A stretch of DNA of 64,000 nucleotides from Flavobacteriales bacterium (GCA_965183885.1 OZ238992.1:1915159-1979158); one strand, 5' to 3'. Counted from the first letter of the stretch, positions 3,322-64,000 are shown. Notes: generated from the sequence alone by a model not told the origin. Made by a program: numbers and translations.

Positions 3322-3487
3322 CTTCTTTCTTCTGCTTTAATTCTTTTTTATACGGACAATGCTTACAATTATTGTTACAGCAATATCCTCTCTTTAAATG
3401 GTACTTTTCAGTAAAAATAATATAGCCTTCTTTAGAATGATAATACTCATCCTTATCTAGCTTGTCTATTTTTGAAAATCCTTTCAT
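3308..3487 (-). CDS. Small Cys-rich protein, DUF5522-like (59 aa, below the ORF-track cutoff)
   Basis: Hand translation of the minus strand: MKGFSKIDKLDKDEYYHSKEGYIIFTEKYHLKRGYCCNNNCKHCPYKKELKQKKEDDKY*. The YHLxRGYCCxxxCxHCPY core is the DUF5522 signature. The stop overlaps the hutU start by 14 nt. Confidence 0.6.
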   Translation of the reverse strand: MKGFSKIDKLDKDEYYHSKEGYIIFTEKYHLKRGYCCNNNCKHCPYKKELKQKKEDDKY

Positions 3488-3517
3488 AAGGTTGGCAAAT
3501 TTACGATATTTGCACGA

Positions 3518-4405: not shown

Positions 4406-4433
4406 TATTAGCCCTTCAAAGGCTTATTTTCTG

Positions 4434-4441
4434 TAAGTTTG
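4434..4441 (+). promoter_or_regulatory. Bacteroidota -7 promoter box TAAGTTTG (TAnnTTTG)
   Basis: Exact match to the TAnnTTTG consensus. It ends 4 nt before the ATG at 4446, implying a leaderless or near-leaderless mRNA. Confidence 0.5.
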
Positions 4442-4445
4442 TGCT

Positions 4446-5318: not shown

Positions 5319-5323
5319 GAAAC

Positions 5324-6835
5324 TTATTCAATAATTATATGCTTGTCTACAGTACCATCATCATAAATGTAAAATAGGGTAGCATTTCTTTTTATAGTAG
5401 TTTCTTTTCCTAGTATATCTACTATTTTAAGAAGTTTTCGTTTAGTTTTTTGTACTTCATTAAGAATGCTTACAGTACAAACAGCTTGGCAAGAAGATAA
5501 ACTAGTGTAAACTCCTGTTCCTAGCCCGTAGTCAATACAAGTGCCATTTGTGCAATCCCAAGAAGGAGTAAAGTTACAATTGTTATTAAAAGAGTGTTGA
5601 GGATCAATATTTCCATTGTTTATAGTCCAGTTAGCATAAGCCCAAGTAGTATCATCAGCTTCAATGCAGTATAAATTAGGGTTGTTACTGATATTAAACT
5701 CTGATGCACTAATACTCATATTGCTGTTGTTTCCATTTCTAATATCTAGCGTTGTAAGCATATTATTGTTACAAATTAAGTTCTTTAATCTTGTATTTGT
5801 ACTTAAATCAAGACTATTAAGTTGATTATTAAAACATGATAAATGTTTTAAGGCTGTATCTTGATTTATTGTAAGGTTAGTTAGTTGATTACCGTCACAA
5901 GCTAATGTTCTTAAATTAAAAAGGCTGTCAGCATTTATACTAGTAAGCAGGTTTGTACTACATTCAAGTCTTATTAAACTAGGTAGTACTAGTGAGCTTA
6001 TGTTTGATATCTTATTGTTATTACAATGGAACTCTTTAAGGTTTGGATGTGTTCCAGCAATAATATTTGTAAGGTGATTATCATTACAATAAAGCTTTTT
6101 AAGTGAATAGTTGGAGCTGATGTCTAAAGTAGTAAGTGTATTGTCATTACAATACAGGTTTATTAGTGAAGGGTTTTGGTCTATATTTAAGCTAGATAGT
6201 AAATTTTGTCCACAATATAAATGTTCTAGATTAGGGTTGGCATTTAAGTTTAAACTACTTATTTGGTTTAAGAAACAGAATAGAAACTTTAAGGATGAAT
6301 TGTAAGTTGTGTTAAGGTTGGTGATTTGATTATCAATGCAATATAGTTTCTCTAATGCAAAATTATCATTAATGTTAAGGCTAGAAAGTTGGTTTGAGCT
6401 ACAGATTAATATTTTTAAACCGGTATTTGAGTTTACGTTCAGATTTGTAAGTTGGTTTATTTCACAGTTTAAGTATTCTAAAAAAGTATTACTACTTAGG
6501 TCCAGATTGTTAATCTGATTTCCATTGCAATCTAGGTGTGTTAAGGAGGTGTTGTTACTTACATCTAGACTCGTTAGTAAATTATTAGAACAGTTTAAGT
6601 CGTTTAGAGCAGCAAAAGCATTAATCCCTGTTAAATCAAGTATCGATAAAGAGCTAACATCTAAGGAGCTAATAGTATTAATTGAATTAGTATTAACTGA
6701 ATCATTAAAGCTAATACCATCACCCATACCATTGCTTTCTAAATAAAACTCAAATGCATTATCTGGAATATGTGTCTTTTGTGCTTTTCCGTTTAAGGCA
6801 AATACAAAAAATAAAAGTAGAAGTTTGTATTTCAT
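5324..6835 (-). CDS. Secreted leucine-rich-repeat protein with 4-Cys module and short T9SS-like C-terminal domain
   Basis: Signal peptide, then about 14 LRR units of 21-23 aa (L..L.C..N.L..L....N..). The tail is PSWDCTNGTCIDYGLGTGVYTSLSSCQAVC + KLLKIVDILGKE...LFYIYDDGTVDKHIIIE. Confidence 0.85.
   Translation of the reverse strand: MKYKLLLLFFVFALNGKAQKTHIPDNAFEFYLESNGMGDGISFNDSVNTNSINTISSLDVSSLSILDLTGINAFAALNDLNCSNNLLTSLDVSNNTSLTHLDCNGNQINNLDLSSNTFLEYLNCEINQLTNLNVNSNTGLKILICSSNQLSSLNINDNFALEKLYCIDNQITNLNTTYNSSLKFLFCFLNQISSLNLNANPNLEHLYCGQNLLSSLNIDQNPSLINLYCNDNTLTTLDISSNYSLKKLYCNDNHLTNIIAGTHPNLKEFHCNNNKISNISSLVLPSLIRLECSTNLLTSINADSLFNLRTLACDGNQLTNLTINQDTALKHLSCFNNQLNSLDLSTNTRLKNLICNNNMLTTLDIRNGNNSNMSISASEFNISNNPNLYCIEADDTTWAYANWTINNGNIDPQHSFNNNCNFTPSWDCTNGTCIDYGLGTGVYTSLSSCQAVCTVSILNEVQKTKRKLLKIVDILGKETTIKRNATLFYIYDDGTVDKHIIIE
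5713..6613 (-). repeat. Intragenic tandem LRR-coding repeats (about 66-69 nt units)
   Basis: Periodic L..L.C..N.LT.L motif through roughly residues 75-375 of the 503-aa protein. Boundaries are approximate. Confidence 0.7.
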
Positions 6836-48558: not shown

Positions 48559-51162
48559 ATGTCATTAGGAGGAGAAAAAATTATCCCTATTAATATTGAA
48601 GAGGAAATGAAATCAAAGTACATTGATTATTCAATGTCAGTTATTGTTTCTAGAGCTTTACCAGATGTGAGAGATGGATTAAAACCAGTGCATAGAAGAG
48701 TGCTTTATGGTATGCATGAATTGGGGATAAAATCAAATACAGCTTATAAAAAATCTGCAAGAATTGTAGGGGAGGTGCTTGGTAAGTTTCACCCTCATGG
48801 TGATACTTCTGTATATGATGCTATGGTTCGTATGGCTCAACCCTGGAGTTTACGATATATGTTAGTTGATGGACAAGGGAATTTTGGTTCTGTTGATGGG
48901 GATAACCCTGCAGCAATGCGTTATACGGAGGCTAGAATGCGCAAAACAGCAGAAGATATGCTGATGGATATTGATAAAGAAACTATTGATTGGAATTTAA
49001 ACTTTGATGATACCTTAAAAGAACCATCTGTTTTACCTGCAAGATTACCTGCTTTACTTTTAAATGGAACTACTGGTATTGCGGTAGGTATGGCTACTAA
49101 TATGCCTCCACATAATATTACTGAGGTTGTTAATGGTACGCTTGCTTATATTGAAAAAAGAGGAGACCTTGAAGTTTCTGATTTAATGGAGCATGTTAAA
49201 GCTCCTGATTTTCCTACAGGAGGAACAATTTATGGTTACGATGGAGTTCGTTCTGCTTTTGAAACAGGTAGAGGGCGTATTGTAATTAGAGGTAAAGTAC
49301 GATTTGAAGAAACTGCTACTAGAGAACAAATTATTGTAGAGGAGATTCCTTATATGGTAAATAAATCGAACATGATTAAGCAAACTGCTGATTTAGTAAA
49401 TAATAAAAAGTTGGAGGGTATCGCTGATATTAGAGATGAGTCGGATAGAAATGGGATGCGTATTGTTTATGATTTAAAGCGTGATGCAATACCAAACATT
49501 GTATTAAATAAATTGTATAAGTATACTGCTTTACAGTCTTCATTTTCAGTAAACAACATTGCTTTGGTTAAGGGTAGGCCACAGTTACTAAACTTAAAAG
49601 AATTGATTGGTCATTTTGTTGATCATAGACATGAAGTACTTATTCGTAAAACAAAGTATGAATTAGCAGCTGCTGAAAAAAGAGCTCATATTTTAGAAGG
49701 TTTACTTATTGCATTGGATAATTTAGATGCAGTAATTAAGTTAATTCGTTCTTCTCGTACTCCTGAGGATGCAAGAAACGGATTAATGTCTAACTTTAAA
49801 TTATCAGAAGTACAATCTAGGGCAATACTTGATTTAAGATTGCAGAAACTTACTGGGTTAGAAATGGATAAGATTAAAGCTGAACATGCTGAGATTATGG
49901 AAAGAATTAAGCATTTAAACTTAATCTTATCTGATGAAAATTTAAGATACACGATACTTTCTGACGATTTAAAAGAAGTTAGAGAAAAGTATGGTGATGA
50001 TAGAAGATCAACTATTGAGTATTCTTCATCAGAGGTTAGTATAGAAGATATGATACCAAATGAGGAAGTATTAATTACTATTTCTCATTTAGGTTATGTT
50101 AAAAGAACTTCATTATCAGAATATAAAGCACAAGGTAGAGGAGGAGTTGGTAGTAGAGGAGCAACTACTAGAGATGAAGACTTTGTAGAAGAAATGGTAA
50201 TGGCAAATAATCATGATTATATGCTATTCTTTACTGAGCAAGGAAGATGTTTCTGGTTAAAAGTATATGAAATTCCTGAAGGAGGTAAAACTGCAAAAGG
50301 TAGGGCAATACAAAACATGATTAATCTTCCTAAGGATGATAAAGTTATGGCTTATATTACTACTAAGGATTTAAAAGATGAAGAATATATTAACTCTCAC
50401 TATATAGTAATGTGTACTAAAAAAGGGGTTATTAAAAAGACATCATTAGAGGCATATTCAAGACCAAGAACTAATGGTATTAATGCAATTACTATTCGTG
50501 AAGGAGATCAATTATTAGAAGCAAAAATGACTACTGGTAATTCTCAAATTATGATGGCAGTTAAATCTGGTAAGTCTATTCGATTTGAAGAAGAAAAAGT
50601 AAGGTCAATGGGGCGTACTGCTGCTGGAGTTAGAGGAATTACTTTAGGTAGTGATACTGATGAAGTTGTAGGAATGATATGTGTTAATGATTTAGAATCA
50701 AATGTATTAGTAGTTTCTGAAAATGGATACGGAAAACGTTCAGCTGTTGAAGATTATAGAATAACAAATAGAGGAGGAAAAGGAGTTAAAACTATTAATG
50801 TAACAGAGAAAACAGGAAATCTTATTGCTCTTAAAAATGTAACTGATGCTGATGATTTAATGGTAATTAATAAATCAGGAATTACAATTAGAATAGGAGT
50901 GGACACGTTAAGAGTAATGGGTAGAGCTACTCAGGGAGTAAAAATAATAAGACTAAGAGATGAAGACAGTATAGCATCTGTTGCTAAAGTATCTAAATGG
51001 GAGGAAGAGGAAGAAGAAACGGTACTTTTAGATGAACATGGTAATGTTATTGAAGCAGAGGGAATTATAGAGGGTGAGGCTACTGCTGAAACTAAGAGTG
51101 AAGCAACTACTACAGAAGAGAATAATGATAATCAAAAAGATGAAGAAAATGAAGAAAATTAA
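48559..51162 (+). CDS. gyrA: DNA gyrase subunit A
   Basis: 867 aa. [21 protein letters not shown], catalytic Tyr context [11 protein letters not shown]-terminal beta-pinwheel, and a long acidic tail. Confidence 0.96.
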
Positions 51163-54001
51163 TCTTATTGCAGCAGTTTTACTGTTTGCATCAACACTTG
51201 TAGCACAAGACTTAACAGAAACAACTTTAATAAAAGAAGCAAGTACTAATCCTTTAGATATTCCTTATGAAAAATGGGAGTTGCCTAATGGTTTAACAGT
51301 ATTAATCCATGAGGATCATTCTGACCCTTTGGTGCAAGTTCATGTTACTTACCACGTAGGAAGTAATCGTGAAACTGCTGGAAAATCAGGGTTTGCTCAC
51401 TTTTTTGAGCACATGATGTTTCAAGGGTCTGAGCATGTAGCTGATGAAAGACACTTTAAAATTATAAGTGATGCTGGGGGAGATATGAATGGGAATACTA
51501 CTGCTGATAGAACTGTATATTTTCAGACTGTTCCTTCAAATTATTTAGAGACTGCTTTGTGGTTAGAGTCTGATAGAATGGGCTTTATGTTAAACGCTGT
51601 AACTCAGGAAAAATTTGAAAACCAAAGAGATGCGGTAAAAAATGAAAAATATCAAAATCAAATTAACAGGCCTTACGGAATGAGTTATGAGATTTTAGGT
51701 CAGAACTTATATCCTCCATCTCACCCATATAACTGGCCGGTAATTGGTTATGTTGATGACTTAGATAGAGCAACAGTTGATGATTTAAAAAATTTCTTTT
51801 TAAGATGGTACGGACCAAATAATGCAATATTAACTATAGCAGGGGATGTTACTGCAGAAGAGGTACTTCCTTTAGTGGAAAAATACTTTAGCACAATACA
51901 AAGGGGTGCAACAGTAAGAAGACAAAAAGCAAATGTTCCAAGATTATCTTCAGATGTATATTGTGGTTATACTGATAATACCTATTTGCCTTTAATTGAT
52001 ATGGTATTTCCTACAGTACCTATGTACCATAAAGATGAAGCTCCTTTAGATATGTTATCAGCATTAATGGGTGGTGGAAATAACTCATTATTTTATAAAA
52101 ACTTTGTAAAAGAAGAAAAAGCAATGCAAGCTTCTGTTAATCACCCTTGCCGTGAGTTAGCAGGAGAGTTTCACTTTACAGTATTATCTTACCCTGATTG
52201 GCAAGAGGATCAAGGGGTCTATTTTAACCAGATTGAACAAGATATAAGAAGTACAATTTCAGAGTGGGAAGAAAAAGGGTTTACCGATGAAGCCTTAGCA
52301 ATGGTAAAAACAGAAATGGAGACTGGAATTATTAATCAAAAAGGGTCTGTAAGCTCTAAAGCATCAGCTATTTCTTCTATGGAATGGAGAGCTAGAGGTC
52401 GTATTAATATTTCTTCAGATATTAAAAGATATAATGATGTAACCAGGGAAGATATAATGCGCGTTTTCAAAAAGTATATTAAAAATAGAAAAGCTGTTAT
52501 TAATATTGTTCGTCCTAAAAGCCCTTATGTAAAAGAATTAGATAGTATTATTAGTATTAACCCTAATGCTAACTTAATGCTAACTGAGGACTCACAATAT
52601 GAAGATTTAGTATATAATAGACCAGTAGATAACTTTGATAGAGCAATACAGCCTAAAGCAGGTACACCAAAGCCTCCTAAAATTCCAGAATATTATAAAG
52701 ATAAGTTTGCAAATGGAATTAGTATTATTGGTACAGAGTCATCAGAATTACCTAAGGTAACTATACGATTAAACTTAGAAGGTGGAAGTTTATTAGAAGA
52801 TGCTAAAAAAGTAGGTTTATCAGAGTTTACAGCTTATATGATGAATGAGAGTACTAAAAGTAATGATGCTGAGGCTATAAGTACAATTTTAAGAAAATTA
52901 GGAAGTAGTATTTCTTTTTCTTCAGGAAAAACAGCTACAACTATGACCATTAACTGTTTAACTAAAAACCTTGATGCAACATTAGCTATTGCTAAAGAAA
53001 AACTTTTTGAACCTGCATTTACTAGTGAAGATTTTGAATTGGTTAAAAAGCAAATGATTGAAAGTATAGAAGCTGATAAGAAAAATGCTCAAGGACTAGC
53101 ATCTTCAGCATACTCAAAACAACTTTTTGGAGATACTCCTTTTGGAAGAAAAGCTAGTAGTAAAACAATTAATAAAATAAAGGTGTCTGATATAGAATCT
53201 TACTATAATAGTTTTTATACTCCTTCAGTAGCTTCTTTAGTTATAGTTGGTGATATTGATAAGGAAACTATATTAGCTAAACTTGATTTTTTAAAGAATT
53301 GGGAAGGGGAGAGTGTTAATATCCCTACAGCTGATGACTTTGAATATCCAGAGGATAATGTAACACAAATTTATTTAATTGATAAAGAAGGGTCTTCACA
53401 ATCTAATATATTTTTAGGACATAAAGCTGATAAGTTTGATGTTGCTGGAGATTATTTTAAATCAAAAATTATGAACTATCCATTAGGAGGTGGAGCTAGT
53501 GGGCGTTTATTCTTAAACCTTAGAGAAGATAAAGGGTTTACCTATGGTGTATATTCATTCTTTAGAGGTAGTGAGTATAATGGTTCCTTTACTGTATTTT
53601 CATCAGTAAAAACAGAAGCTACTGATAGTGCATTAGTTGAAATATTTAAAGAGTTAAATGCTATGAATACAACAGGAATTACTGCTGATGAATTAGCAAC
53701 TACAAAAAGCTCAATGCTTAATAGTGAGGCTTTAGAGTATGAAACGTTAGGACAAAAAGCAGGTTTCTTAAACACAATGTTAAAGTATAATCTTGATGAA
53801 ACATTTATTGACGAACAAGTAAAAGTACTTAATGAGATTAGTTTAGATGAGATTAATGCATTAGCAAAAGCAAAAATTAATCCTGAAAAAATGAGTATTG
53901 TTATTGTAGGGAATAAGTATCTTATTAAAAAGAAATTAGAAAATTTACAATCTAGTGCTGATGGCTTAAAATTTAATTTTAAGGTGACAGAACTTAAATA
54001 A
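51140..54001 (+). CDS. M16-family (pitrilysin/insulinase-like) zinc peptidase, secreted
   Basis: The track ORF (51074) is over-extended into gyrA. The likely start is [18 protein letters not shown] (ATG 51140 or 51149) with a signal peptide. Inverted zinc motif [11 protein letters not shown], and two M16 halves. Confidence 0.88.
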
Positions 54002-54023
54002 AACTTAATTAATAAAATCAATT

Positions 54024-55202
54024 ATGAAACTTAAAAAAGGAATATTAACAGCAGTATTATTAGCTGTTACCACACTTACATTTGCACAATCGCATAATAT
54101 TGTTAACGCTTCAATTGCATTAAGAAATGAGAACCTTGCTGAAGCTAAGGACTATATTGACCAGGCTTATTCGGCAGAAAGTACTGCTAATGATCCTAAA
54201 ATGTGGAACTACCGTTCAAAAATCTACTTGGAGATAGCTATTAAAAAATCTGAACTAGATAGTGATGCTATTTTTAAAGCAACTGAAGCGTATTTAAAGT
54301 GCTTACAAACAGATAAAAAAGGAAGAATAGTTGTACGTAAATGGACAGCAGAGGAGGATGTAAGATCAAGTTTAGTACAGTGTGGTTATAAACTATTTAA
54401 TATTGCAATTGATAAGTATAACAAGGAGGACTATACAAGTTCTTTAAAGCACTACAATGTAATATTTGATATTATTCCTTTTGATACTGAAGATCAGTTA
54501 AAAAGAGGTAATATTACTGAAGAAACAATACTTTTTAATTCATTTTACGCTGCAAATAAAATGAAGGATAATGTAAAGTCACGTGAGTTATTACAAAAGC
54601 TTATTGATATTAACTTTAATGAGCCTTCTATTTATATTCATATGAGTAATAGTTACCTTGAAGATGATAATACAGAAAAGGCTATAGAGTATTTAGCATT
54701 AGGTAGAGAGAATTTTGAGGATGACCAATCACTTATTAATACTGAAATTAACTTGTATATTAAATTAGGAAGAACATCTGAGTTAATTGAGAAGTTAGGT
54801 GAGGCAATAGCTTTAGATGAGGAAAATGATGTATTATTCTTTAATAGAGGAACTATTTATGATCAAGAAGGAGATTTAATAAATGCTGAAAAAGATTATA
54901 AAAAAGCTATCGAGTTGAATCCTTCAGCATTTGGAGCTAATTATAATTTGGGAGCACTTTATTTTAATCAAGGAGTAGAGATAAATAATAAAGCAAATAG
55001 TACTAGTAATAATAGTACATATGAAAAATTAAAGAAGCAATCAGAAAGCACATTTGCTAAATCATTACCATATTTAGAAACTGCTTATGATTTAAACCCA
55101 GAGGATAAGAACACATTGTTGTCATTAAAACAATTATATTATTTAAATGGGGACTATGCAAAGTCAGAAGAAATGAAGAAGCTTATTGCAGAACTTAAAT
55201 AA
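54024..55202 (+). CDS. Tetratricopeptide-repeat protein, secreted
   Basis: 392 aa. Signal peptide and several TPR units (for example AEKDYKKAIELNPSAFGANYNLGALY). Confidence 0.8.
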   Translation: MKLKKGILTAVLLAVTTLTFAQSHNIVNASIALRNENLAEAKDYIDQAYSAESTANDPKMWNYRSKIYLEIAIKKSELDSDAIFKATEAYLKCLQTDKKGRIVVRKWTAEEDVRSSLVQCGYKLFNIAIDKYNKEDYTSSLKHYNVIFDIIPFDTEDQLKRGNITEETILFNSFYAANKMKDNVKSRELLQKLIDINFNEPSIYIHMSNSYLEDDNTEKAIEYLALGRENFEDDQSLINTEINLYIKLGRTSELIEKLGEAIALDEENDVLFFNRGTIYDQEGDLINAEKDYKKAIELNPSAFGANYNLGALYFNQGVEINNKANSTSNNSTYEKLKKQSESTFAKSLPYLETAYDLNPEDKNTLLSLKQLYYLNGDYAKSEEMKKLIAELK

Positions 55203-55217
55203 GAATAAAATGATAAG

Positions 55218-55242
55218 TGGGAGCTAATACTCCCATTTATTT
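55218..55242 (+). terminator. Probable terminator of the TPR gene
   Basis: TGGGAG-CTAATA-CTCCCA hairpin followed by TTTATTT. Confidence 0.5.
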
Positions 55243-55786
55243 AAATACAGTAATTTAACATAATATTAATTATAGGACAAAAGGAGTTGTGTGTTTATAT
55301 ATAGTACTATTGTATACTTTAGTCAACTATAATATATATTATGTCTGCACTAGCGTTTGCCCTTTGGGTAAATTTTTTTACAAAAAAAATGAAAAAGAAA
55401 ACTTTGGTCCTATAATTAGACATTATGTATAAATAGCCTGCTTGCCCTAGCACAATTTATTTTTTAAAAATATTTTTGTTTTAATAACAAAAAATTTTAA
55501 ATATAAATTCAGCCGCTTTGCCAATGCATTTTTAAGAATTTAATATTTTACCCACCGCCAAGAAATTTTATGTGGTAGTTTACTTGTATACAAAAAATGC
55601 TTTTGCCTTTATAATCTTAAGGCTTTATTTCGCATTTTTCTATACTGCATTAACTGAATTTTATTATTTATTCATTTTGCCTTGATGACAAATGAAGCGT
55701 TAGCAAATTCACGAATACTATTAAATAAAATTATTAATGAGTAAAACGAACCAAAAAATCAAGAATTATTATAGTCTTTTCTTTAG

Positions 55787-55826
55787 CAACAATTAGCAAG
55801 TATATTAAAATGTTTGCTAATTGTTG
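55787..55826 (-). terminator. 13-bp hairpin immediately downstream of the JAB-E1 gene (candidate terminator without U-tract)
   Basis: CAACAATTAGCAA (55787-55799) and TTGCTAATTGTTG (55814-55826) are perfect complements with a 14-nt loop, 30 nt past the stop at 55856. Confidence 0.4.
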
Positions 55827-55855
55827 TTATAGGAAATTTATCAGGTGAAAATAAT

Positions 55856-57346
55856 TTAAAAACTAAATATTGAAGATGCTACTTTTTTTATAAGAGAATA
55901 TAATCCTTTATTTTTTTTACCTGACAGGGAATTCTGATATTTAATTCTACTATTTTCTGATTGTAAGTGTTTTATTATTAAGGATTTATTTGTATCATCT
56001 GCACTTCCAATTAAATCTTTGGAAATCATACAGTCATGCTTACAATTATTTTCAAAACTAAAATCTATATTTCCTGTATTAAAATCCATTTCTTTTGGAC
56101 CGTAATAGAATCCTCTTGGTTTTAAAATCAAAGATAAAAATTGTTGTATTTCCATTCCTGCTAGACCCAAACTAAAACCGAAAACATTTTCACCTCGATT
56201 AATAAAGTGATTCTTAGGTAACCCCTTTATATACTTTGGATTATCTAATTCTCCTGATAATTCTAATGCCGCATCTTCAGGTCTATATTGCCCCAAACAT
56301 TGCATGCATATTCTTTCAGGTCCTATTGTGTGTGCTTTCCATCTAGCTTGATCTATATTTGATAAATCTGCATTTGGATTTGTATCAATTCCACCATCAA
56401 TAACTGGAATTAAGTTTGCAAATGATAAACAATCTAAAGCGTATCTAGGAAGAGGCATATCTACACAAGAAAATAAAATATCACAATCAAGCGCTGCTTC
56501 TTGTCCTTCTTTTTCAGTAATACTATAAGGTACGGCATTAATTTTTAAACCAGAAATGAGTTCAGTTTTTAAAAGTCTCTTTTTTTGAACATCTACTTTA
56601 AATTTTCCAATATCAGCTCTATTTATTGCTAATAATCTATCTAAATTTTTTAATTCAACTAAATCAAAATCAATAAGCGTTAAATTCTTAATACCTGTTC
56701 TTAAAATAGCTTCAGTAACTATAGAGCCAACACTACCTAAACCTACTATTCCAATTTTCAATCTAGAAATTTCATGCTGTTTTAAATCTCCCCAAGATGA
56801 AATAGTACGTTTAAACTCTTCTCCGAAATTAGATTTTGGGAAAATATCATCACAGAAATATGTTTTTAGGGACTTACCTACTACCCTTACGGATTCGCAC
56901 CAATATCGTTCATAAGTATTTGGGGCTTTTTTTATCCAAAATCGAGCACTCCAATAATTATCTATTCCAATTGTCATTCCAACTAGAGGTAACCCTGTAA
57001 CTGCCTTAACTCTTGGAGCTAACATTTTTTCTGCCTCTATATCGTCAAAGCTCATTCCTTGCCAACCTGGATAAGGATGACTATGAATAAAACAGATTCC
57101 TAAATTATTAGCTAAAGCATAAGAGGTTGCCTTATCAAAATAAACGGAATTAAAACTTACATTTCCATGTATATTTCTATCTCCAAATTCTGGTAAAATC
57201 ACTTCATTAATAACTCCTGTTTCTCGTAGTTTTCCAGAAGATAATTTATAAAAAGCAAAGCATAAATCTTCTTGACCATCCTCTCTAATAAGGTGTTCAA
57301 AAAATATCCTATTGACATTTTCTGTCATTGTTATACTATACTTCAT
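55856..57346 (-). CDS. JAB (JAMM-like deubiquitinase-type metalloprotease) fused to ThiF/MoeB-type E1-like adenylating enzyme
   Basis: 496 aa. N-terminal E (GQEDLCF) plus HSHPYPGWQGMSFDD (H-x-H-x8-S-x2-D). The C-terminal half has IGIVGLGSVGS (GxGxxG), LIDFDLVELKNLDRL, FSCVDMPLPR, and CMQC...CKHDC cysteine pairs. Confidence 0.8.
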   Translation of the reverse strand: MKYSITMTENVNRIFFEHLIREDGQEDLCFAFYKLSSGKLRETGVINEVILPEFGDRNIHGNVSFNSVYFDKATSYALANNLGICFIHSHPYPGWQGMSFDDIEAEKMLAPRVKAVTGLPLVGMTIGIDNYWSARFWIKKAPNTYERYWCESVRVVGKSLKTYFCDDIFPKSNFGEEFKRTISSWGDLKQHEISRLKIGIVGLGSVGSIVTEAILRTGIKNLTLIDFDLVELKNLDRLLAINRADIGKFKVDVQKKRLLKTELISGLKINAVPYSITEKEGQEAALDCDILFSCVDMPLPRYALDCLSFANLIPVIDGGIDTNPNADLSNIDQARWKAHTIGPERICMQCLGQYRPEDAALELSGELDNPKYIKGLPKNHFINRGENVFGFSLGLAGMEIQQFLSLILKPRGFYYGPKEMDFNTGNIDFSFENNCKHDCMISKDLIGSADDTNKSLIIKHLQSENSRIKYQNSLSGKKNKGLYSLIKKVASSIFSF

Positions 57347-57702
57347 TCGAAATCTAATAATGTTCTTAAAAATGCTAAATAATCATCCGCAGTCATACCA
57401 GAAGTCCATCCTTTAAATGGTCTACTCCAATACTGATATTCTTGTGTAGGAACTTTTCTGTCGTGTATTCCGCCAAAAGGATGTGTGCCTCCACCTCCTG
57501 TAATAGGAAGTAAATGTGGTTTTATATGTGGTCCTGAAGGCGGTAACAATGGAAACTGTTGACCTTGTAAAGCTATTTCAATTTCTTGTCCTTTAAACCT
57601 CCCTAATGGAACGATAAACTTGAAGCACACAAAATTATTTGTGTGCATCCAAGTTTCGAGTCCTTTGCTTTGCAGTTGACTCATTAACTCATTATTTCCC
57701 AT
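57343..57702 (-). CDS. E2/UBC-fold-like protein lacking an active-site cysteine (Prok-E2_E-like)
   Basis: 119 aa. FPLLPPSGPHIKPH resembles the UBC YPxxPP...HPN segment. The gene sits between a Ubl gene and an E1 gene and overlaps the E1 start by 4 nt. The only Cys is C26. Confidence 0.55.
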   Translation of the reverse strand: MGNNELMSQLQSKGLETWMHTNNFVCFKFIVPLGRFKGQEIEIALQGQQFPLLPPSGPHIKPHLLPITGGGGTHPFGGIHDRKVPTQEYQYWSRPFKGWTSGMTADDYLAFLRTLLDFE

Positions 57703-57704
57703 AA

Positions 57705-58148
57705 CTACGAAACAGTTGTAGGTTCAAGTTTACAAGAACTAAATTTAAGAGCATTTTTAATAGATACTTTATGCTCTCTATCATTTTTATAACTAACTTC
57801 TATATGTCCACTAATTTGTTTTAAATAAAACCCATTAGCATTCTTTCCTGATGCAGTTAATATTTGATTTGGAGTCATAAAACATTCATCTACTTGAAAA
57901 GGTTCATCATCAACATAAATGATTAGTTTCTTATAAGGTTTTGCAAAAAAACCTTCAATTCCAGCCTCATTAAGATCAATTCTTTCATCTAATTGAACTG
58001 GCTCAAAACCTTTCTCATTTACTTTGATTAATAATTCATAATCTTCAACCGGGAATAGATTTGCTTTCTTTAATATTTCTTCCCCTGTAATAATTGCATC
58101 AACAGTTTCAAATTTTTCTCTGTTAACTTTGTAACTAAATTTTTCCAT
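57705..58148 (-). CDS. Tandem ubiquitin-like (two beta-grasp repeats; Multiubiquitin-type) protein
   Basis: 147 aa. Two roughly 65-aa repeats share the same pattern (FSYKVNREKFETVDAIITGEEILKKANL... and LIIYVDDEPFQVDECFMTPNQILTASGK...). 2-nt gap to the E2-like gene. Confidence 0.6.
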   Translation of the reverse strand: MEKFSYKVNREKFETVDAIITGEEILKKANLFPVEDYELLIKVNEKGFEPVQLDERIDLNEAGIEGFFAKPYKKLIIYVDDEPFQVDECFMTPNQILTASGKNANGFYLKQISGHIEVSYKNDREHKVSIKNALKFSSCKLEPTTVS

Positions 58149-58173
58149 TTTTTTGTTTTTTTAATGGATTAAC

Positions 58174-58197
58174 TCATGTTCTTATATTAGAACATGA
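58174..58197. promoter_or_regulatory. 24-bp palindrome TCATGTTCT-TATATT-AGAACATGA (candidate operator of the Ubl operon)
   Basis: Perfect 9-bp arms, 26-49 nt upstream of the Ubl start codon (58148, minus strand), in the divergent region shared with the HTH-ImmA gene. Confidence 0.4.
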
Positions 58198-58265
58198 ATA
58201 TACTATTTTGGTAAAAGTTGTAAAAGAAATTTTGATAATAAATATAAAATTATATCTTTGCACAA

Positions 58266-58376
58266 CTATATAGGGATATTAAGGTGATAAGCCTTAATAG
58301 TGCAAGTCTGTAGAAAACTTTTACCCCATTTATATAATCCAATTTATTGTTACCTGCAATAGATTGGATTTTTTTG
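58266..58376 (+). ncRNA. Candidate small RNA (about 110 nt) bounded by a promoter box and a strong intrinsic terminator
   Basis: TTG (58232-58234)-N18-TATCTTTG (58253-58260) promoter. Internal 8-bp hairpin TATTAAGG/CCTTAATA (58277-58299). No ATG-initiated ORF in between. Confidence 0.35.
58337..58376 (+). terminator. Strong Rho-independent terminator with no upstream + strand gene
   Basis: 14-bp stem AATCCAATTTATTG / CAATAGATTGGATT (one G-U pair that would become an A-C mismatch on the other strand), 7-nt loop, then TTTTTT. Confidence 0.7.
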
Positions 58377-58616
58377 TTTTTATCCTTTTTTATTTTTAAA
58401 TTATGAATACAAATATACTTAAATAATATGTAATGATATTACAATGATACTGTTTTTGTTATCAAAGTTTTTAACTTTATGTTAATAACATATTTCAATA
58501 TTAATAACAGTATACTGAATATTTATTAGTTAGAGAGTTCTGACAATAGTATCTTATATAGTTACTTGTAAAGTAAATAAATTAACAAACAACCTAATAA
58601 TTAATTTATATTTTAA

Positions 58617-58624
58617 TAGATTTG
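58617..58624 (+). promoter_or_regulatory. -7 promoter box TAGATTTG
   Basis: Exact TAnnTTTG match. The TTG 58622 start of the track ORF lies inside the box, so the real start is ATG 58637 or 58649. Confidence 0.5.
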
Positions 58625-58636
58625 CAATCAACTTAT

Positions 58637-59734
58637 ATGATAAAATTTATGTCAAAAGATATTAATCATCCTGGTGTATTTCTAAATAAGCTACTTGTAG
58701 ATAAAGGAATTAGCCAACGAGAATTTGCCTCAAAGATTAATATTGCACATTCACTTTTAAATAACATATTAAAAGGTAATAGAAATATCAATATTAATAT
58801 TGCTATTTCACTTGAATCTGCTAGGATGAAAACTGCTGATTATTGGCTAAAAGAGCAAATGAAGTACTCTTTATATTTAGCAAAGAATAATGAAGAAATA
58901 ATAAAGAAAAATGAATGTATAAAGATATGGAATGATTTAGAGGAATTAGTTCCCATTTCATTTTTCAAAAAACAGGGTCATCTAGAATCAAGTTCTTTAA
59001 ATGATGATATTAATAAAATATATGAAATTTATGAGGTAGAAGACATAAGAAGCTTAAAGCATAAAGTTAACACCTATCAACTAAGCCATTTTAGAAAATC
59101 ATCAAAATTTCCTGAAAATGAAAGGAATATAATTGCTTGGTCTCTATTAGCAAAATATAAAGCAAAGCAAGAAGAATTAAAACCTTTTTCAAAAACGAAT
59201 GAAGGATTCTTGATAAATGAACTGAAAAGATGTTTTTTGAAGAATGAGAACACATTAAGTAAGTCTAAAGAAATACTAAATAAATATGGAATTAAATTTT
59301 TTATTTTGGACAGGCCACCTAAAACTCCAGTTGATGGGAAATCATTTATGTCTGGAAAATCTCCTGCAATAGTTTTATCATTAAAATATAAAAGATTAGA
59401 TAATTTTGCTTTTACATTATTTCATGAGATTGGACATGTTTTTAAGCACTTGATTACTCCTAAATATAAAGGTGTTGATTTCTTTGTTAACGGTTCTAAT
59501 GAAAAGTTTGAAGAATTTGAAGCTAACATATACGCAAGAAATCACTTAATTGATTCTGAATCTTGGAGTAATTTTATTAATTCAAATAGTGAATTTAATG
59601 ATGAAGTTATTAATAAGTTCTCTACTTCAATTAAAGTTCATCCTTCAATAATTAGAGGAAGAGTATGTTTTGAATATCCAGAATATTATAAAAAGAGGAG
59701 TGCTATAAATAGAATTAATTATTTAACTTACTAA
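58637..59734 (+). CDS. Fusion of XRE/HigA-type HTH domain and ImmA/IrrE-family (COG2856) zinc metallopeptidase
   Basis: N-terminal HPGVFLNKLLVDKGISQREFASKINIAHSLLNNILKGNRNI (HTH). C-terminal FAFTLFHEIGHVFKH (HExxH), then EEFEANIYARNHLI (downstream Glu ligand). Confidence 0.85.
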   Translation: MIKFMSKDINHPGVFLNKLLVDKGISQREFASKINIAHSLLNNILKGNRNININIAISLESARMKTADYWLKEQMKYSLYLAKNNEEIIKKNECIKIWNDLEELVPISFFKKQGHLESSSLNDDINKIYEIYEVEDIRSLKHKVNTYQLSHFRKSSKFPENERNIIAWSLLAKYKAKQEELKPFSKTNEGFLINELKRCFLKNENTLSKSKEILNKYGIKFFILDRPPKTPVDGKSFMSGKSPAIVLSLKYKRLDNFAFTLFHEIGHVFKHLITPKYKGVDFFVNGSNEKFEEFEANIYARNHLIDSESWSNFINSNSEFNDEVINKFSTSIKVHPSIIRGRVCFEYPEYYKKRSAINRINYLTY

Positions 59735-59793
59735 CCTTCTATTCTAAACCAGTAATTAATTTACTACTTTTTTTTAATAATGCCTCCCCCCTA

Positions 59794-60589
59794 TTACTCC
59801 AAAATAATTCGCTTTTCAACACTACCATCGCTATAAATATAAAACAAAATACCTTTTTGTTTGGGGTTGGCTTCTTTACCTAAAATATCCACAACTTTAA
59901 CAAGTTTTTTGTTACTGCCATTTACCTCATAAACAGCATTAGGCTGCTCAGTAGTTTCCTCTAAAACAAAATTATCTATATACACTACATAGTTATTGGT
60001 GTCACCTATCCCTACTTCTACAGTAACATACTGCTCTGCATTTTGGGTATTGAATACCACACTGTACTGTTTCCAAATGCTATCACCTAGAGGAGAAGTA
60101 TAAAGATGAGTACCAAAAGAAGTATCAACATTAGAAATCCCTACTTGTATATAATTATTTTTAACATTATAACAAGGGGTTGTATCTGTTGGATAAGTAG
60201 ATGGCTCTTTCACATAAAAAGAGAGTTTGTAATTTTGTTCCGTACTTAAAGGTTGGCTCAGCTCCAACGAAAATTTAGATTGAGTCCAATATATATTTCC
60301 TGATATATATAGGCTCAGAATGCATATTAAGGTGCCAATGCCCATCTTGTGCCCCCCCCCCCAAAAAATAATTTGGAAGAAAAGTGCAGGTAACACAAGA
60401 ATCTTTAATTAGGGCTATCTGAGTACCATAAGCAACAGAATATAACATAGTATTATTCCAAGAGTTTGTATTCATAGCATGATAACATTGGCTTTCAGTA
60501 TTTAATTCAAAACTACCATTAAGGATTAAATTTTGAGAATTAGCAGTTAAACCAAAACATAAAAATAATATATAGATTAATTTTTTCAT
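59794..60589 (-). pseudogene. Frameshifted secreted CBM-like (jelly-roll) protein with short C-terminal domain, paralog A
   Basis: Track ORFs 60275..60589 (signal peptide, NLILNGSFE) and 59794..60396 are two frames of one gene. By homology to paralog B, the poly-G (11 G, 60352-60362) is in frame. The break maps to the (TA)4 run at 60303-60311. Confidence 0.7.
60352..60362 (-). repeat. Homopolymer: 11 C on + strand (poly-G in the coding strand of paralog A)
   Basis: Counted directly. Encodes the Gly run in ..NYFLGGGAQ.. Confidence 0.95.
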
Positions 60590-60636
60590 TTTAAAAAATA
60601 GTTGCTCGTTACTAGTTTTTAGTTGTTAGTATTTCA

Positions 60637-61441
60637 TTACTCAACAAAAACTTTCTTCTCCACACTACCATCGCTATAAATATAAAACAAAATACCTTTT
60701 TGTTTGGGGTTGGCTTCTTTACCTAAAATATCCACAACTTTAACAAGTTTTTTGTTACTGCCATTTACCTCATAAACAGCATTAGGCTGCTCGGTAGTTT
60801 CTACTAAAACAAAGTTGTCTACAAAAATATCTTTGTTATTTATATTGCCAGTATCTATCTTGACTGTAAGATATTCTTCTGCATTTTGGGTATTGAATAC
60901 TACACTGTACTGTTTCCAAATGCTATCCCCTAAAGGACTAGTGTAAAGATGAGAACCAAAAATAGTATCTGTATTGGATATACCTACTCTTATAGAATTA
61001 TTAAGAGGGTTATCACATAAACTATCATTTGATGGAGGTGGAGGGTCTTTAACATAAAAAGAAAGTTTATAATTTTTTTCACCACTTAATGGGGCATTCA
61101 ATTGTAAAGAAAAACGAGATTGTGCCCATCCACTTCCTGTTGGAAAATTAAAAGGTTTTGAGCGCATAAGTACCATCCAATTTCCATGTTGTACCCCCCC
61201 CCCCCCAATACATAGAAGGAATACATTTTTCACAAGAATCACTATGTATTTCCATTTTATGCCCATAAGAAGTAGAATAAGAAACTTTAGTATTCCAAGA
61301 ATTAAAAAATAAGCTTTCATAACATGAATTTACAGAGTGTTGCTCAAAGCTACCATTAAGGATTAAGTTCTGTGCTTTTATGATAAAAGCACAGAACATA
61401 ATTAAAAATATAACTGTTATTTTTTTAGTGACATCTAGCAT
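60637..61441 (-). pseudogene. Frameshifted (likely phase-OFF) secreted CBM-like protein with short C-terminal domain, paralog B
   Basis: Track ORFs 61148..61441 (signal peptide, NLILNGSFE ... MYWGGGG) and 60637..61320 (..IGGGGVQHGNW...) switch frame exactly at the 13-G tract. 12 or 15 G would give one continuous ORF. Confidence 0.75.
61194..61206 (-). repeat. Homopolymer: 13 C on + strand (poly-G in the coding strand of paralog B)
   Basis: Counted directly (61194-61200 plus 61201-61206). Confidence 0.95.
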
Positions 61442-61451
61442 TATACATCAT

Positions 61452-64000
61452 TTATTCTCCAAAGATAGTTAATTTTTCACTAAAGCGTATTGTACCATTA
61501 TTGTCGGTAATATTCACTAAATATAAACCTGTACTTAAATGTGCTACATTAAGTGCTGTTTGCTGCTTATTTTCAATAATGTATTTTGCAACTACCTTTC
61601 CTCTGGCATCAACAATGGATATTGTTGCAGTTTCATTATCTGCTAAATTAGTAGTAATATTAAGTACATCTTGTGCAGGATTAGGATAGATAATAAACCC
61701 TTCCATATCCTCAGCTGCCAAACGAGGTTGCGGCACTAAAGCCAAAGTACGCTCACAAATATTTACATAATCTATCCAATAATGATCATAATACCTCGCA
61801 ATTACTCGTGCTGTATATACTGCTAAACCATCGGTATGCGGACAAAGATAAGCAATAGTACGGACAGTTGCCAATTCACTAGCAGTAAGCTTAGTAAAAT
61901 CCTCTCCTCTAAGATAAGGCGCTAGTATTTTTTCATAGATGGTTTTAGCATTGAGCTCATAGCTACTTGTAGCTTGCATACTATCAATTATGGCTTGTGC
62001 TTCAGTATACAAGCTATCATTCATTTTTTCTTTAATCCTTACCATACGCCCCATATCTTCCTGTTCCTTAGTACTTACAAAAGTGGAAAGCACACTACTG
62101 CTGCTTATTAAAGTATTATCGTCTTTTACTTTTTCATACAAGCGTTCTTGGTTGTTGTAGACCTCACCAGTACTGCTCAATGCCGTATCAGATAAAGCAA
62201 GGGTTTCTAATGTTGCTAAATTAGGAGTAGCGCTAGTTGTAGGTGGAGGGGCTATAGGCAGTGGTGCACTTGTACAATTAGGTAAAGCACCACAGAAATT
62301 ATAAGGAGCGTATTTATTGGCAGCAAGCACAGGTACAGGTAAAGCACCACCACCATCATCATCACTAAAGAAAGGATTATAAGGATTAATATTTCTAGTA
62401 AAGAAAGAAGATAGGGTTCCATCACTCATTCCTTTAGTATAAATGTGTGGTTTAGTTGGAGTTCCTCCTACAATTTGTCCAAAATTCCCAGTCCACATAT
62501 TATCGTTAGGGTTAGCAAAAGTTCCTTGCTGTCCTATACTTCCTGCATTGTCAATTACTACTCCAAAATCAGAAAAACGAATATTATTGTTTGTTAATAT
62601 AGCTTGCATCTGTCCATCAAAATGCATACTCTCTACATAAAAACCTGAGTAATTGCAGTTTAGTGTTGGTGCATCAGAGTCAGAAATTTTAATTCCCATT
62701 TGTGTGCTTTGTCCGTCCCCAATAACACTATTGCTGTTTAGCATTGCATTATTACAATGTCCTAATTCCACCCCATAATTACTGTGCTTTAAATAATTCT
62801 GTTCTATTTGCAAGTTGCTTACATTCAAAAGGTTAATTCCTTGCCAATACACATCATCAAAACAATTGTTATTAATGTTATAGCTATTAGTAAGTGATGG
62901 GTTAAAATTACCTCCATACACCCCAATAGCTGCACTAATAGTGCCCAAAGTAGGGTCAGTGTTAAAACTATTGTTTTCAATAGTCATAAATCCATAATCG
63001 TTCATATTAGTCCACACCCCAACCGATACATTAGTCATTTGGTTATCATTTATAGTAGTAGCCCTATTCATTGTTATTGAAGTCCCCATTGCAGCCCATT
63101 GTCCCCTAGTAAAAGTATTGTTACTTAGGGTGGAGTTCATACGCTCAGCATATATTCCCAAGTCAAAATTATTAAACGTATTTGTTTTTAAGCTAAGACC
63201 TCCTACTGTTACTACATCGCCTATTAGTCCAGGAGTACCATCGGCATAAATACAGGCTGTAGGGTTAATAAAACTAGGGAAACTAGCTCCTGTGCTATGG
63301 GCAAAGTGAATGTTTTCAAAACTATTGTTATAGACTTCAAAACTTGTTTGCATCCCTACAATACCATACCTTAAATCTCTTATCGTGTTTTGATAAGCTG
63401 CATTGCTTGCATCTCCAATCACTAAACCATTAGTTTGGTGTAAGAGTATTCCCGTAAAGCTACTATCCACCTGTACGCCATTATATTGGTTGTATAAGAG
63501 TAATTCATCATTACTAATGGTATTTCCTCTAAAGATAGAGCCATTATCGGTTAAAGGGTGGCATACCAAACTATACAGATTATTATTGAATGTTGTGTTT
63601 TCAATAGTATATGCTGAATTATGAGCATTAGGGCTCATTACCACTGCTTTCATAGCATCCTCAATTATGGAGTTATTTGTGATAATATAACTATAATCGA
63701 CATAAATACCTTGCCACATACTATCCACACAAGCCTCTATATGTGTATTATTTAGGGTTAAAGAGGCTTCATCCACCCAAATAACGGCATCAGGTCCCAT
63801 TTTTATTTCACAATTATTAAAGGTAAGTCCATCAGGATTATCTACAAATAAGGTATCCTTAATTACGATGAGCTTATTATCTACAATAAAGGGAGGGCTT
63901 CCTAAAGGAACATTATTTTGTGCTATTACATCATTGGAGTTACCCCCTGCATAAAGCTTAATATCAGCTAATGGTACTCTACAACACAGCGTATCAAACA
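61452..64000 (-). CDS. Large right-handed beta-helix repeat protein with canonical T9SS type-A C-terminal domain (5' end outside window)
   Basis: The track starts at Met 63800, but I checked that the frame stays open to position 64000. Repetitive N..I.N/G rungs. C-terminus FIIYPNPAQDVLNI...GLYLVNITDNNGTIRFSEKLTIFGE. Confidence 0.8.
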   Translation of the reverse strand, partial: FDTLCCRVPLADIKLYAGGNSNDVIAQNNVPLGSPPFIVDNKLIVIKDTLFVDNPDGLTFNNCEIKMGPDAVIWVDEASLTLNNTHIEACVDSMWQGIYVDYSYIITNNSIIEDAMKAVVMSPNAHNSAYTIENTTFNNNLYSLVCHPLTDNGSIFRGNTISNDELLLYNQYNGVQVDSSFTGILLHQTNGLVIGDASNAAYQNTIRDLRYGIVGMQTSFEVYNNSFENIHFAHSTGASFPSFINPTACIYADGTPGLIGDVVTVGGLSLKTNTFNNFDLGIYAERMNSTLSNNTFTRGQWAAMGTSITMNRATTINDNQMTNVSVGVWTNMNDYGFMTIENNSFNTDPTLGTISAAIGVYGGNFNPSLTNSYNINNNCFDDVYWQGINLLNVSNLQIEQNYLKHSNYGVELGHCNNAMLNSNSVIGDGQSTQMGIKISDSDAPTLNCNYSGFYVESMHFDGQMQAILTNNNIRFSDFGVVIDNAGSIGQQGTFANPNDNMWTGNFGQIVGGTPTKPHIYTKGMSDGTLSSFFTRNINPYNPFFSDDDGGGALPVPVLAANKYAPYNFCGALPNCTSAPLPIAPPPTTSATPNLATLETLALSDTALSSTGEVYNNQERLYEKVKDDNTLISSSSVLSTFVSTKEQEDMGRMVRIKEKMNDSLYTEAQAIIDSMQATSSYELNAKTIYEKILAPYLRGEDFTKLTASELATVRTIAYLCPHTDGLAVYTARVIARYYDHYWIDYVNICERTLALVPQPRLAAEDMEGFIIYPNPAQDVLNITTNLADNETATISIVDARGKVVAKYIIENKQQTALNVAHLSTGLYLVNITDNNGTIRFSEKLTIFGE

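Follow-up and report, generated by a model that had tools for sequence, protein, structure and literature searches.

A BubE-less, serine-terminated, Type I-like variant of the Bub operon in a Flavobacteriales bacterium

Introduction

No known relative of eukaryotic ubiquitination is, to our knowledge, more diverged than the Bub pathways. Can such a pathway dispense with a component by which its family is defined? The question is raised by a three-gene operon at positions 55856-58148 of a 64,000-nucleotide stretch of DNA from a Flavobacteriales bacterium (GCA_965183885.1, OZ238992.1:1915159-1979158), a stretch that we call the window and whose positions are counted from its first letter. An original prediction, made from the sequence alone, had read the operon as a 6E/Bub-type system that combines a tandem ubiquitin-like protein (Ubl), an E2-like protein and a fusion of a JAB peptidase to an E1. 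The analysis presented here indicates that the operon is best described as a genuine and intact member of the Bub superfamily, namely a Type I-like variant that lacks BubE and whose Ubl terminates in serine.

Bub operons, formerly '6E', form a family whose biochemistry dates from 2024-26; they were defined by Ye, Gong, Chambers & Corbett (10.1101/2024.11.21.623953). In the same work Type I operons comprise BubAB, in which Ubl and E2 are fused and JAB cleaves behind a conserved Gly, together with BubCD (JAB-E1) and the DUF6527 serine protease BubE, while Type II operons comprise BubA, BubBD (E2-E1) and BubE; by the published definition, 'all Bub operons' carry bubE (10.1101/2024.11.21.623953). 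In the Citrobacter system, JAB processes BubAB after the Ubl C-terminus, and conjugation proceeds through a Tyr of the E1 crossover loop (Y370) and then a Ser of the E2, an oxyester relay without cysteines (10.1101/2024.11.21.623953). The regulators CapH+CapP or CapW occur in about 40% of Bub operons (10.1101/2024.11.21.623953), and CapK+CapS form a further regulator pair associated with them.

Two features of the operon in the window are already known. Fusion of JAB to the N-terminus of the E1 is the defining feature of Type I, for which crystal structures and biochemistry of BubCD exist. Operons in which Ubl and E2 are encoded separately are also on record: Table S1 of the defining study has about 30 of them in Type I, Bacteroidetes examples among them (10.1101/2024.11.21.623953). 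The original prediction had taken a JAB-E1 of this kind to be uncharacterised in Bacteroidota, a view of its novelty that these entries correct; its statement that the targets, trigger and biological role of Bub systems are uncharacterised holds as of June 2026 (PMC13373217). What differs is that the operon belongs to a BubE-less, serine-terminated clade in which residues at or aligned with catalytic positions of E1 and E2 are changed.

Results

Three co-directional open reading frames occupy the minus strand, exactly at the coordinates first proposed for them:

57705..58148, minus strand: Ubl of 147 residues with two beta-grasp domains (Pfam Multi_ubiq, AlphaFold2, Foldseek)
57343..57702, minus strand: BubB-like E2 of 119 residues, a minimal UBC fold with predicted catalytic Ser93 (AlphaFold2, Foldseek, hhalign, Prok-E2_E)
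55856..57346, minus strand: BubCD-like JAB/JAMM peptidase-E1 fusion of 496 residues (Citrobacter BubCD 9ea4, ThiF)
56852..57346, minus strand: JAB/JAMM metallopeptidase domain of the fusion, residues ~1-165, with intact E26, H88-S-H90, S99 and D102
56012..56824, minus strand: E1 adenylation domain of the fusion, residues ~175-445, with ATP loop, 4-Cys site and crossover loop

The gene order is Ubl-E2-(JAB-E1). A gap of 2 nucleotides (57703-57704) separates the Ubl and E2 genes, and the E2 and JAB-E1 genes overlap by 4 nucleotides (57343-57346), again as proposed; the motifs quoted in the original prediction are all present in the translations (GQEDLCF, HSHPYPGWQGMSFDD, GLGSVGS, LIDFDLVELKNLDRL, CMQC...CKHDC and FPLLPPSGPHIKPH). 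All three genes evolve under purifying selection, the ratio of nonsynonymous to synonymous substitution rates (dN/dS) being 0.10-0.14 for Ubl, 0.04-0.12 for E2 and 0.08-0.14 for JAB-E1. They co-occur in all relatives whose loci were examined, and this co-occurrence agrees with the profile, structural and residue-conservation evidence given below in assigning the operon to the 6E/Bub type. The four conditions that the original prediction had named as refuting it were each checked, and none of them holds. At 31-32.5% GC the genes do not stand out from most of the window. AT-richness is confined to the spacers on their flanks (23-25% GC), so the 'AT-rich accessory patch' in which the operon had been placed applies to its flanks and not to the operon.

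The product of the first gene is a ubiquitin-like protein by both profile and fold. Pfam Multi_ubiq matches residues 7-69 at 1.2e-12, and an AlphaFold2 model built with 50 homologues (mean predicted local distance difference test, pLDDT, 89.3) contains two beta-beta-alpha-beta-beta units followed by a tail, residues 141-147, of lower confidence. Foldseek searches with this model retrieve the solved bacterial multi-ubiquitins 8u38, 9d5b, 9d5a and 9cd2 at E-values of 1e-11 to 1e-7 over both domains, with ISG15 ranking after them, and one of the two domains superposes on the E1-bound betaG3 of Citrobacter BubA with a root-mean-square deviation of 1.4 Å. The tandem architecture had first been proposed from two repeats of roughly 65 residues in the sequence. 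As a statement about the modelled structure it is right; the internal repeat itself is not significant in sequence (BLASTP E=0.05, for a short out-of-register match), and support for the tandem reading comes from structure only.

The C-terminus of the Ubl departs from the Type I pattern. The protein ends ...KLEPTTVS, with neither a C-terminal Gly nor an extension beyond the tail, and is translated already mature. The Gly nearest to the C-terminus, G113, lies inside the fold, and the conserved mature Gly of Type I BubA is absent. Approximately 45 standalone Ubl homologues, each from a distinct cluster, all stop exactly after ...TVS, and 20 fused members of the E2 family carry the motif [GE][PA]T[TP]VS at the Ubl/E2 junction, after which a variable linker follows. 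Because the stop of the standalone proteins coincides with the junction motif of the fused relatives, we take serine to be the mature C-terminal residue of the Ubl. A serine-terminated Ubl is in principle competent for conjugation: the Type II BubA of E. coli ZDHYS365 (PDB 9cd2), whose C-terminus reads ...TQTDKS, works in vitro (10.1101/2024.11.21.623953).

The E2 is recognised at the level of its family rather than from its single sequence. Alone it scores below threshold against Pfam Prok-E2_E (E 0.045), and as a single sequence it has no sequence match in the PDB. An exhaustive HMMER search places it in a family of 107 representative clusters, whose members either stand alone, at about 120 residues, or form the C-terminal part of a fusion with Ubls. 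Searched individually, 35 of 65 of them match Prok-E2_E (best 3.3e-9), and the family profile finds ten weak PDB matches, all of them eukaryotic E2s aligned on the FP..PP segment. Its AlphaFold2 model (pLDDT 95.4) supports the UBC fold first suggested for this protein, since the top Foldseek matches are nearly all UBC E2s (probability 0.9-0.99, template modelling score 0.5-0.58). The family aligns by hhalign with the E2 half of canonical Type I BubAB at 81% probability (E 1.3e-5), with YWSRP placed over QQWSRH. Neither a direct PDB sequence nor a profile match to Citrobacter BubB was found, and BubB is not among the top 50 Foldseek matches; the link to BubB is drawn from the hhalign result and the Prok-E2_E matches.

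Three residues, G34, S93 and R94, are the only ones without variation among the 65 aligned sequences. S93 and R94 lie in the YWSRP motif, and no cysteine is conserved. These comparisons support the assignment of the protein to a divergent branch of Prok-E2_E, a UBC fold with a predicted catalytic Ser in place of Cys. Its motif reads S-R-P, with P95 nearly invariant, instead of S-x-H, and the column aligned with the Type I Asp is variable. A Type II (DUF6791) identity was considered and rejected, as the protein has no similarity to BubBD of the Type II operon from Flavobacterium rakeshii (locus L010). All public records that we have seen label the protein 'hypothetical protein'.

The JAB-E1 fusion has Citrobacter BubCD (PDB 9ea4) as its best solved relative in phmmer searches, at an E-value of 5e-17 over residues 6-325, which span both JAB and E1, and is only about 24% identical to a canonical BubCD. 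Pfam ThiF matches it at 1.9e-29 in one domain only (residues 180-320). Its homologues number more than 3000; the top 120 are full-length, of about 490-510 residues and 53-90% identical. The JAMM residues E26, H88, H90, S99 and D102 are conserved in 119/119 members of this clade, are likewise invariant across Type I and fused relatives, and align with E28/H91/H93/D104 of Citrobacter BubCD.

The adenylation site of the E1 half is equally intact. G202/G204/G207, D228, R237, K250 and D296 are found in 119/119 sequences, D226 in 118/119 and G199 in 116/119; G199-G207 form the G-rich ATP loop, and R237 corresponds to Citrobacter R227. The range of 116-119/119 also holds for the 4-Cys site and for Y372, H380 and F381 of the crossover loop. 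The only conserved cysteines in the clade are the four near-invariant residues of that site, C347, C350, C435 and C439 (CxxC...CxxxC), which are absent from the canonical BubCD of the Type I locus L006 and which, by comparison with MoeB and ThiF, probably form a structural Zn site of the MoeB kind. In L006 the counterpart of Citrobacter Y370 is the Tyr of 'KQGYV', and MAFFT sets that Tyr opposite F381 rather than Y372, an alignment made uncertain by a 4-residue length difference in the crossover loop. Y372, present in 119/119 sequences, stands nine residues before F381.

No BubE accompanies these genes. A six-frame hidden Markov model search for BubE/DUF6527 (PF20137) returned no match in the whole window or in the clade loci among L001-L018; as positive controls, the BubE proteins of Type I L006 and Type II L010 were recovered and detect each other at 5e-6. 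The downstream spacer of about 650 bp (55203-55855) contains no open reading frame longer than 47 residues. In precomputed Pfam annotation, PF20137 is absent from 10 clade loci, and its absence extends to relatives as distant as 57% E1 identity (Mucilaginibacter, Ulvibacterium and Cytophagales) and to the fused forms of Ignavibacteriales and of another metagenome. As the published catalogue (Table S1) was seeded on DUF6527, BubE as a family feature is partly definitional. The absence of BubE, the serine C-terminus of the Ubl and the apparent shift of the crossover-loop Tyr are three departures that the original prediction did not contain.

Comparisons with known systems place the operon nearest to Type I Bub (6E.1; Citrobacter sp. 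RHBSTW-00271; PDB 9ea4, 9ea5, 9ea8). The two share the JAB-E1 fusion in the same domain order and with homology across both domains, an E2 of the Prok-E2_E/BubB lineage with a catalytic Ser (predicted here) in a W-S-R motif, a multi-beta-grasp Ubl, the order Ubl-E2-(JAB-E1), the lack of a catalytic Cys in E1 and E2 and, in part of the family, divergent regulators of HTH/M78 type (HTH, helix-turn-helix); versions with split Ubl and E2 genes are catalogued for Type I. They differ in that the cassette in the window has no BubE, its Ubl ends in the Ser of ...TVS where Type I has a conserved Gly, its E2 carries S-R-P with no counterpart of the Type I Asp where Type I has S-x-H, and its E1 has Phe at the Y370-aligned position, an invariant Tyr 9 residues earlier and a retained 4-Cys site.

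Type II Bub (6E.2; E. coli ZDHYS365, PDB 9cd2; Flavobacterium rakeshii L010) resembles the cassette in having a free Ubl gene with a Ser-ended product and divergent CapH/CapP-type regulators, and L010 has in common with it an upstream palindrome and leader. In contrast, Type II fuses E2 to E1, its DUF6791 E2 domain is dissimilar to the E2 in the window, the E1s match only at the nucleotide loop, and Type II has BubE and lacks JAB. Bil operons (BilABCD) likewise encode a tandem-beta-grasp Ubl together with E1, E2 and JAB peptidase, and the N-terminal domain of the Ubl in the window has a match at 1.2e-7 to 8u38, a Type II Bil Ubl from Methylobacterium; the E1 in the window is, however, a single adenylation domain fused to JAB and without a catalytic Cys, which sets the cassette apart from Bil. 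Type II CBASS (cyclic-oligonucleotide-based antiphage signalling system), with Cap2 (E2-E1) and Cap3 (JAB), shares an E1-like adenylation fold, a JAB partner and the occurrence of CapH/CapP-type regulation. The PADLOC E1-E2 models match only the nucleotide-binding region of our E1 (residues ~190-295, 1e-14 to 1e-5), and unlike CBASS the window has no CD-NTase or effector, its E2 is a separate gene of another family and its Ubl is dedicated. No PADLOC model calls the cassette as a system.

Two further features lie immediately upstream of the operon:

58149..58421, minus strand: conserved leader/promoter region that travels with the cassette and at which DNA homology to 13 other loci starts
58649..59734, plus strand: Xre-HTH fused to an M78 (ImmA/IrrE) peptidase with a HEIGH motif (HTH_3, Peptidase_M78), divergent from the operon

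At the upstream edge of the mobile cassette, positions 58336-58370, the leader contains a palindrome with 14-bp arms, AATCCAATcTATTG-N7-CAATAAATTGGATT. It is unique in the window (0 expected by chance), is kept in 13/13 other loci with an invariant stem and a variable loop, and recurs in the Type II operon L010 (5731-5765), where it separates CapH from the divergently oriented BubA gene. On the plus strand a T-run follows it, as in a terminator. The palindrome is a candidate boundary element or, in our reading, a probable operator. The leader folds with z=-5.9 and has no Rfam match, and a second small hairpin at ~58283-58302 shows two compensatory pair changes; covariation is too thin for the leader to be called an RNA element.

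The divergent gene agrees with the HTH-ImmA/IrrE regulator first noted beside the operon (HTH_3 8e-6; Peptidase_M78 1.7e-4; HigA 1.8e-12), and its PADLOC matches are PD-Lambda-2_B (4.6e-33), capP (2.4e-5) and capH (0.009). The mechanically called frame starts at TTG 58622; ATG 58649 is the likely start, because the homologues in L011 and L016 begin MSKNNIHPG, matching MSKDINHPG in the window. In those two loci (L016 from Zobellia) the regulator is co-inherited with the cassette, the DNA homology running to ~59736, and separate CapH+CapP genes take the same divergent position in other clade members (L007-L009 and L020). The HTH-M78 protein is probably a stress-responsive repressor of the operon.

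The regulator also shares its Xre-HTH-peptidase architecture with PD-lambda-2B, whose protein of this type is toxic in E. coli when expressed alone; no HigB-like partner reading frame lies upstream of the regulator. In Aquimarina macrocephali (L001 6742-7764), a 340-residue HTH/MqsA-like protein with a SocA/Panacea domain is encoded before the cassette on the same strand and replaces the HTH-M78 protein. Given this SocA/Panacea-type protein, the cassette is evidently paired with different regulatory or toxin-antitoxin-like partners across genomes.

The cassette spreads horizontally among the genomes of marine Flavobacteriaceae; together with its palindromic leader it recurs in many members of the family at about 85% DNA identity. 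DNA homology to the 13 other loci covers window positions 55834-58421 (~2.6 kb) at 76-88% identity, the flanks being unrelated, and the 90%-identity clusters of E2 and E1 cover many Flavobacteriaceae genera. Some copies sit in an element with integrase, DUF932, SSB and RadC genes, and another in an integrase/relaxase element with CapH+CapP. The anti-phage pair IetA/IetS lies directly upstream on the same strand in L002-L005 and L021 (L002 3955-7732; L021 476-3902), and the canonical Type I operon L006 has it upstream as well (2263-5729); the distance is about 270-290 nucleotides, and the PADLOC E-values go down to 0. This adjacency occurs in three independent lineages, one of them the canonical Type I operon with BubE, and could reflect either ordinary clustering in defence islands or a functional pairing.

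In the window itself the island is set among housekeeping genes (gyrA, M16 peptidase) and surface-protein genes. The whole window has no tRNAs, and no reading frame listed for 50000-64000 looks like an integrase, a region for which no profile search for integrases was made.

Two side observations deserve mention in their own right. A gene for DCD (dCTP-deaminase), with two genes behind it whose unannotated products have about 356-376 and 95-100 residues, adjoins on the opposite strand both the canonical Type I Bub operon L006 (8910-10898) and the BubE-less cassette L019 (710-2777), and possibly represents another defence module that recurs with Bub. On the minus strand of the window, at 59794-61441, are two tandem paralogous genes, each encoding a signal peptide and a C-terminal sorting domain of the type IX secretion system (T9SS) type. 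Each is split into two overlapping reading frames with the frame break exactly at a poly-G tract (G11 at ~60352-60362 and G13 at ~61197-61209), a pattern that suggests surface proteins subject to slipped-strand phase variation, or alternatively a sequencing error in the homopolymers.

Discussion

Taken as a whole, the locus is best explained as a minimal, BubE-less, Type I-like Bub protein-conjugation cassette with a probable role in anti-phage or stress defence, and we hold this explanation with reasonable confidence. Whereas gene integrity, folds, homology to BubA/BubB/BubCD, conservation of catalytic residues, lack of BubE, mobility and neighbourhood are shown above, the chemistry, regulation and function that follow are inferred, the steps of the mechanism by homology. 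The E1 half would bind the 147-residue Ubl's C-terminal beta-grasp and use ATP and Mg to adenylate its free C-terminal carboxylate; as the Ubl is translated already mature, the adenylated residue would be Ser147. The Ubl may then reach Ser93 of the E2, without any cysteine, as a serine oxyester. It would get there either by way of a Tyr oxyester at Y372 in the crossover loop of E1 or straight from the adenylate. From Ser93 it would be transferred to lysines of target proteins.

The JAB domain would reverse conjugation, for recycling or as negative control. In the split form there is no pre-protein to cut and BubE is missing, while JAB is fully intact, and JAB is for these reasons most likely the sole deconjugase. 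The divergent HTH-M78 protein, bound at the conserved palindrome, would hold expression off until a stress or DNA-damage cue releases it, as for CapH/CapP. A defence against phage or stress is the most likely role of the cassette in view of its defence and mobile context, which includes adjacent IetAS, mobile elements and adjacent CapH/CapP-type regulators.

Several observations weigh against this proposal. The Ubl is the counterpart of betaG1-betaG2, a module that in the solved proteins serves to oligomerise the Ubl and not to bind E1. Opposite the catalytic Y370 of Citrobacter the alignment has an invariant Phe (F381), and since Y370F kills the Citrobacter enzyme (10.1101/2024.11.21.623953), the hand-off from E1 to E2 may take another form here, if it occurs at all. 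The Ser of the E2 is without the usual partners of the catalytic residue, which are His/Asp in Type I and Lys/His in Type II. The regulator is not closely related to validated CapH/CapP, is only distantly similar to the pair beside the cassette in L020, and accompanies the cassette in some genomes only. The chemistry proposed for this clade is read by homology. Lastly, phage protection has been reported for no Bub operon as of June 2026 (PMC13373217).

That last point also favours the alternative that survives best, in which the cassette is a true conjugation system that serves the mobile elements carrying it, through transfer, maintenance or addiction, or a general stress response, and does not act against phage. 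Several copies are indeed carried by integrative or mobilisable elements that encode integrase, relaxase, DUF932, SSB and RadC, and the regulator in the window resembles an Xre-peptidase derived from toxin-antitoxin systems (PD-Lambda-2B/HigA). However, at other sites, this window and L001 among them, the cassette has no recognisable mobile genes around it, and it stands repeatedly beside IetAS and the CapH/CapP-type regulators typical of defence operons. We regard this alternative as unlikely, if still worth serious weight; it bears on the biological role alone, and the proposed chemistry could stand under it.

A more radical alternative holds that the 147-residue protein is not conjugated at all and acts as a betaG1-betaG2-like scaffold, sensor or regulator, with the enzymes working on another substrate or on themselves. 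The Ubl is 55-60% identical to betaG1-betaG2 of the three-domain (Ubl_3) BubAB proteins, whose third domain bears the reactive Gly that the window protein lacks at its C-terminus, and in the solved three-domain Ubls these first two domains form Ca-dependent dimers and filaments. Against this, the ...P-T-x-V-S tail is strongly conserved and falls exactly at the Ubl/E2 junction of fused relatives, where JAB cleavage or adenylation would be expected; the lower confidence of the modelled tail relative to the core is consistent with a flexible, ubiquitin-like tail; and one beta-grasp superposes on the E1-bound Citrobacter betaG3, as described above. In addition, the serine-ended Type II BubA is conjugated in vitro, and no further gene in the cassette that could encode a substrate is conserved. 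We consequently regard this reading as improbable.

A sulfur-carrier or cofactor system of the ThiS/MoaD and ThiF/MoeB kind, in which adenylation, and possibly thiocarboxylation, of the beta-grasp protein would serve small-molecule biosynthesis and not attachment to proteins, is very improbable. It would account for a single-domain E1, presumably of homodimeric type, with a beta-grasp partner, no catalytic Cys and the MoeB-like CxxC...CxxxC site that canonical BubCD has lost, and ThiF and MoeB are indeed the best NCBIfam matches of the E1. Those matches, however, reach 69 bits against a family cut-off of 159; the Ubl ends in Val-Ser and has no Gly-Gly terminus; no sulfurtransferase, rhodanese or biosynthetic partner is adjacent, the flanks being unrelated between genomes; a UBC-fold E2 and a JAB peptidase with intact active site are strictly co-inherited; and the closest solved homologue, Citrobacter BubCD, is a demonstrated protein-conjugating enzyme. 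Together these points effectively exclude it.

The least probable reading, that the Ubl and E2 frames are fragments of one frameshifted BubAB gene in a decaying, non-functional operon, could appeal to two different frames 2 nucleotides apart, to an E2 frame open for only 7 codons upstream and to the existence of fused Ubl-E2 relatives (P0122, P0198 and P0199), but it is effectively excluded by the identical split with the same 2-nucleotide gap in every Flavobacteriaceae locus examined and in Mucilaginibacter and Ulvibacterium, by the ...TVS stop common to ~45 distinct Ubl clusters and by dN/dS of 0.04-0.14 for the two frames, and the catalogue already holds some 30 Type I operons with separate genes.

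With the conjugation-cassette explanation retained, a broader interpretation can be offered tentatively, and we place it somewhat below an even chance. The clade may constitute a third, BubE-independent Bub subtype, with the operon in the window as its founding example, widespread in Bacteroidota and with fused forms in Ignavibacteriales, that is defined by a serine-terminated mature Ubl and by a JAB-E1 with either a relocated crossover-loop Tyr or a direct hand-off from the adenylate to the E2 Ser. JAB, no longer needed to process a pre-protein, would be its sole deconjugase, and the whole would form a self-contained mobile module with a palindromic operator that enters defence islands, repeatedly beside IetAS.

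The cassette is not a near-unknown system; it is a useful natural minimal form of a known one, and of moderate interest as such. A naturally minimal version with one Ubl, a small E2 and a JAB-E1 but no BubE reveals which parts of the pathway are dispensable, and the split, BubE-less form separates a possible deconjugase role of JAB from the processing of a pre-protein. Its proteins amount to natural 'mutants' of published catalytic positions, with Phe at the position aligned with Y370, S-R-P for S-x-H and Ser for the Gly terminus. Catalogues seeded on DUF6527 miss the entire clade, and the PADLOC models pass over it as well. Its hosts are cultivable marine Flavobacteriaceae in which the cassette occurs beside IetAS and on mobile elements, and this makes the clade tractable for work on phage and stress.

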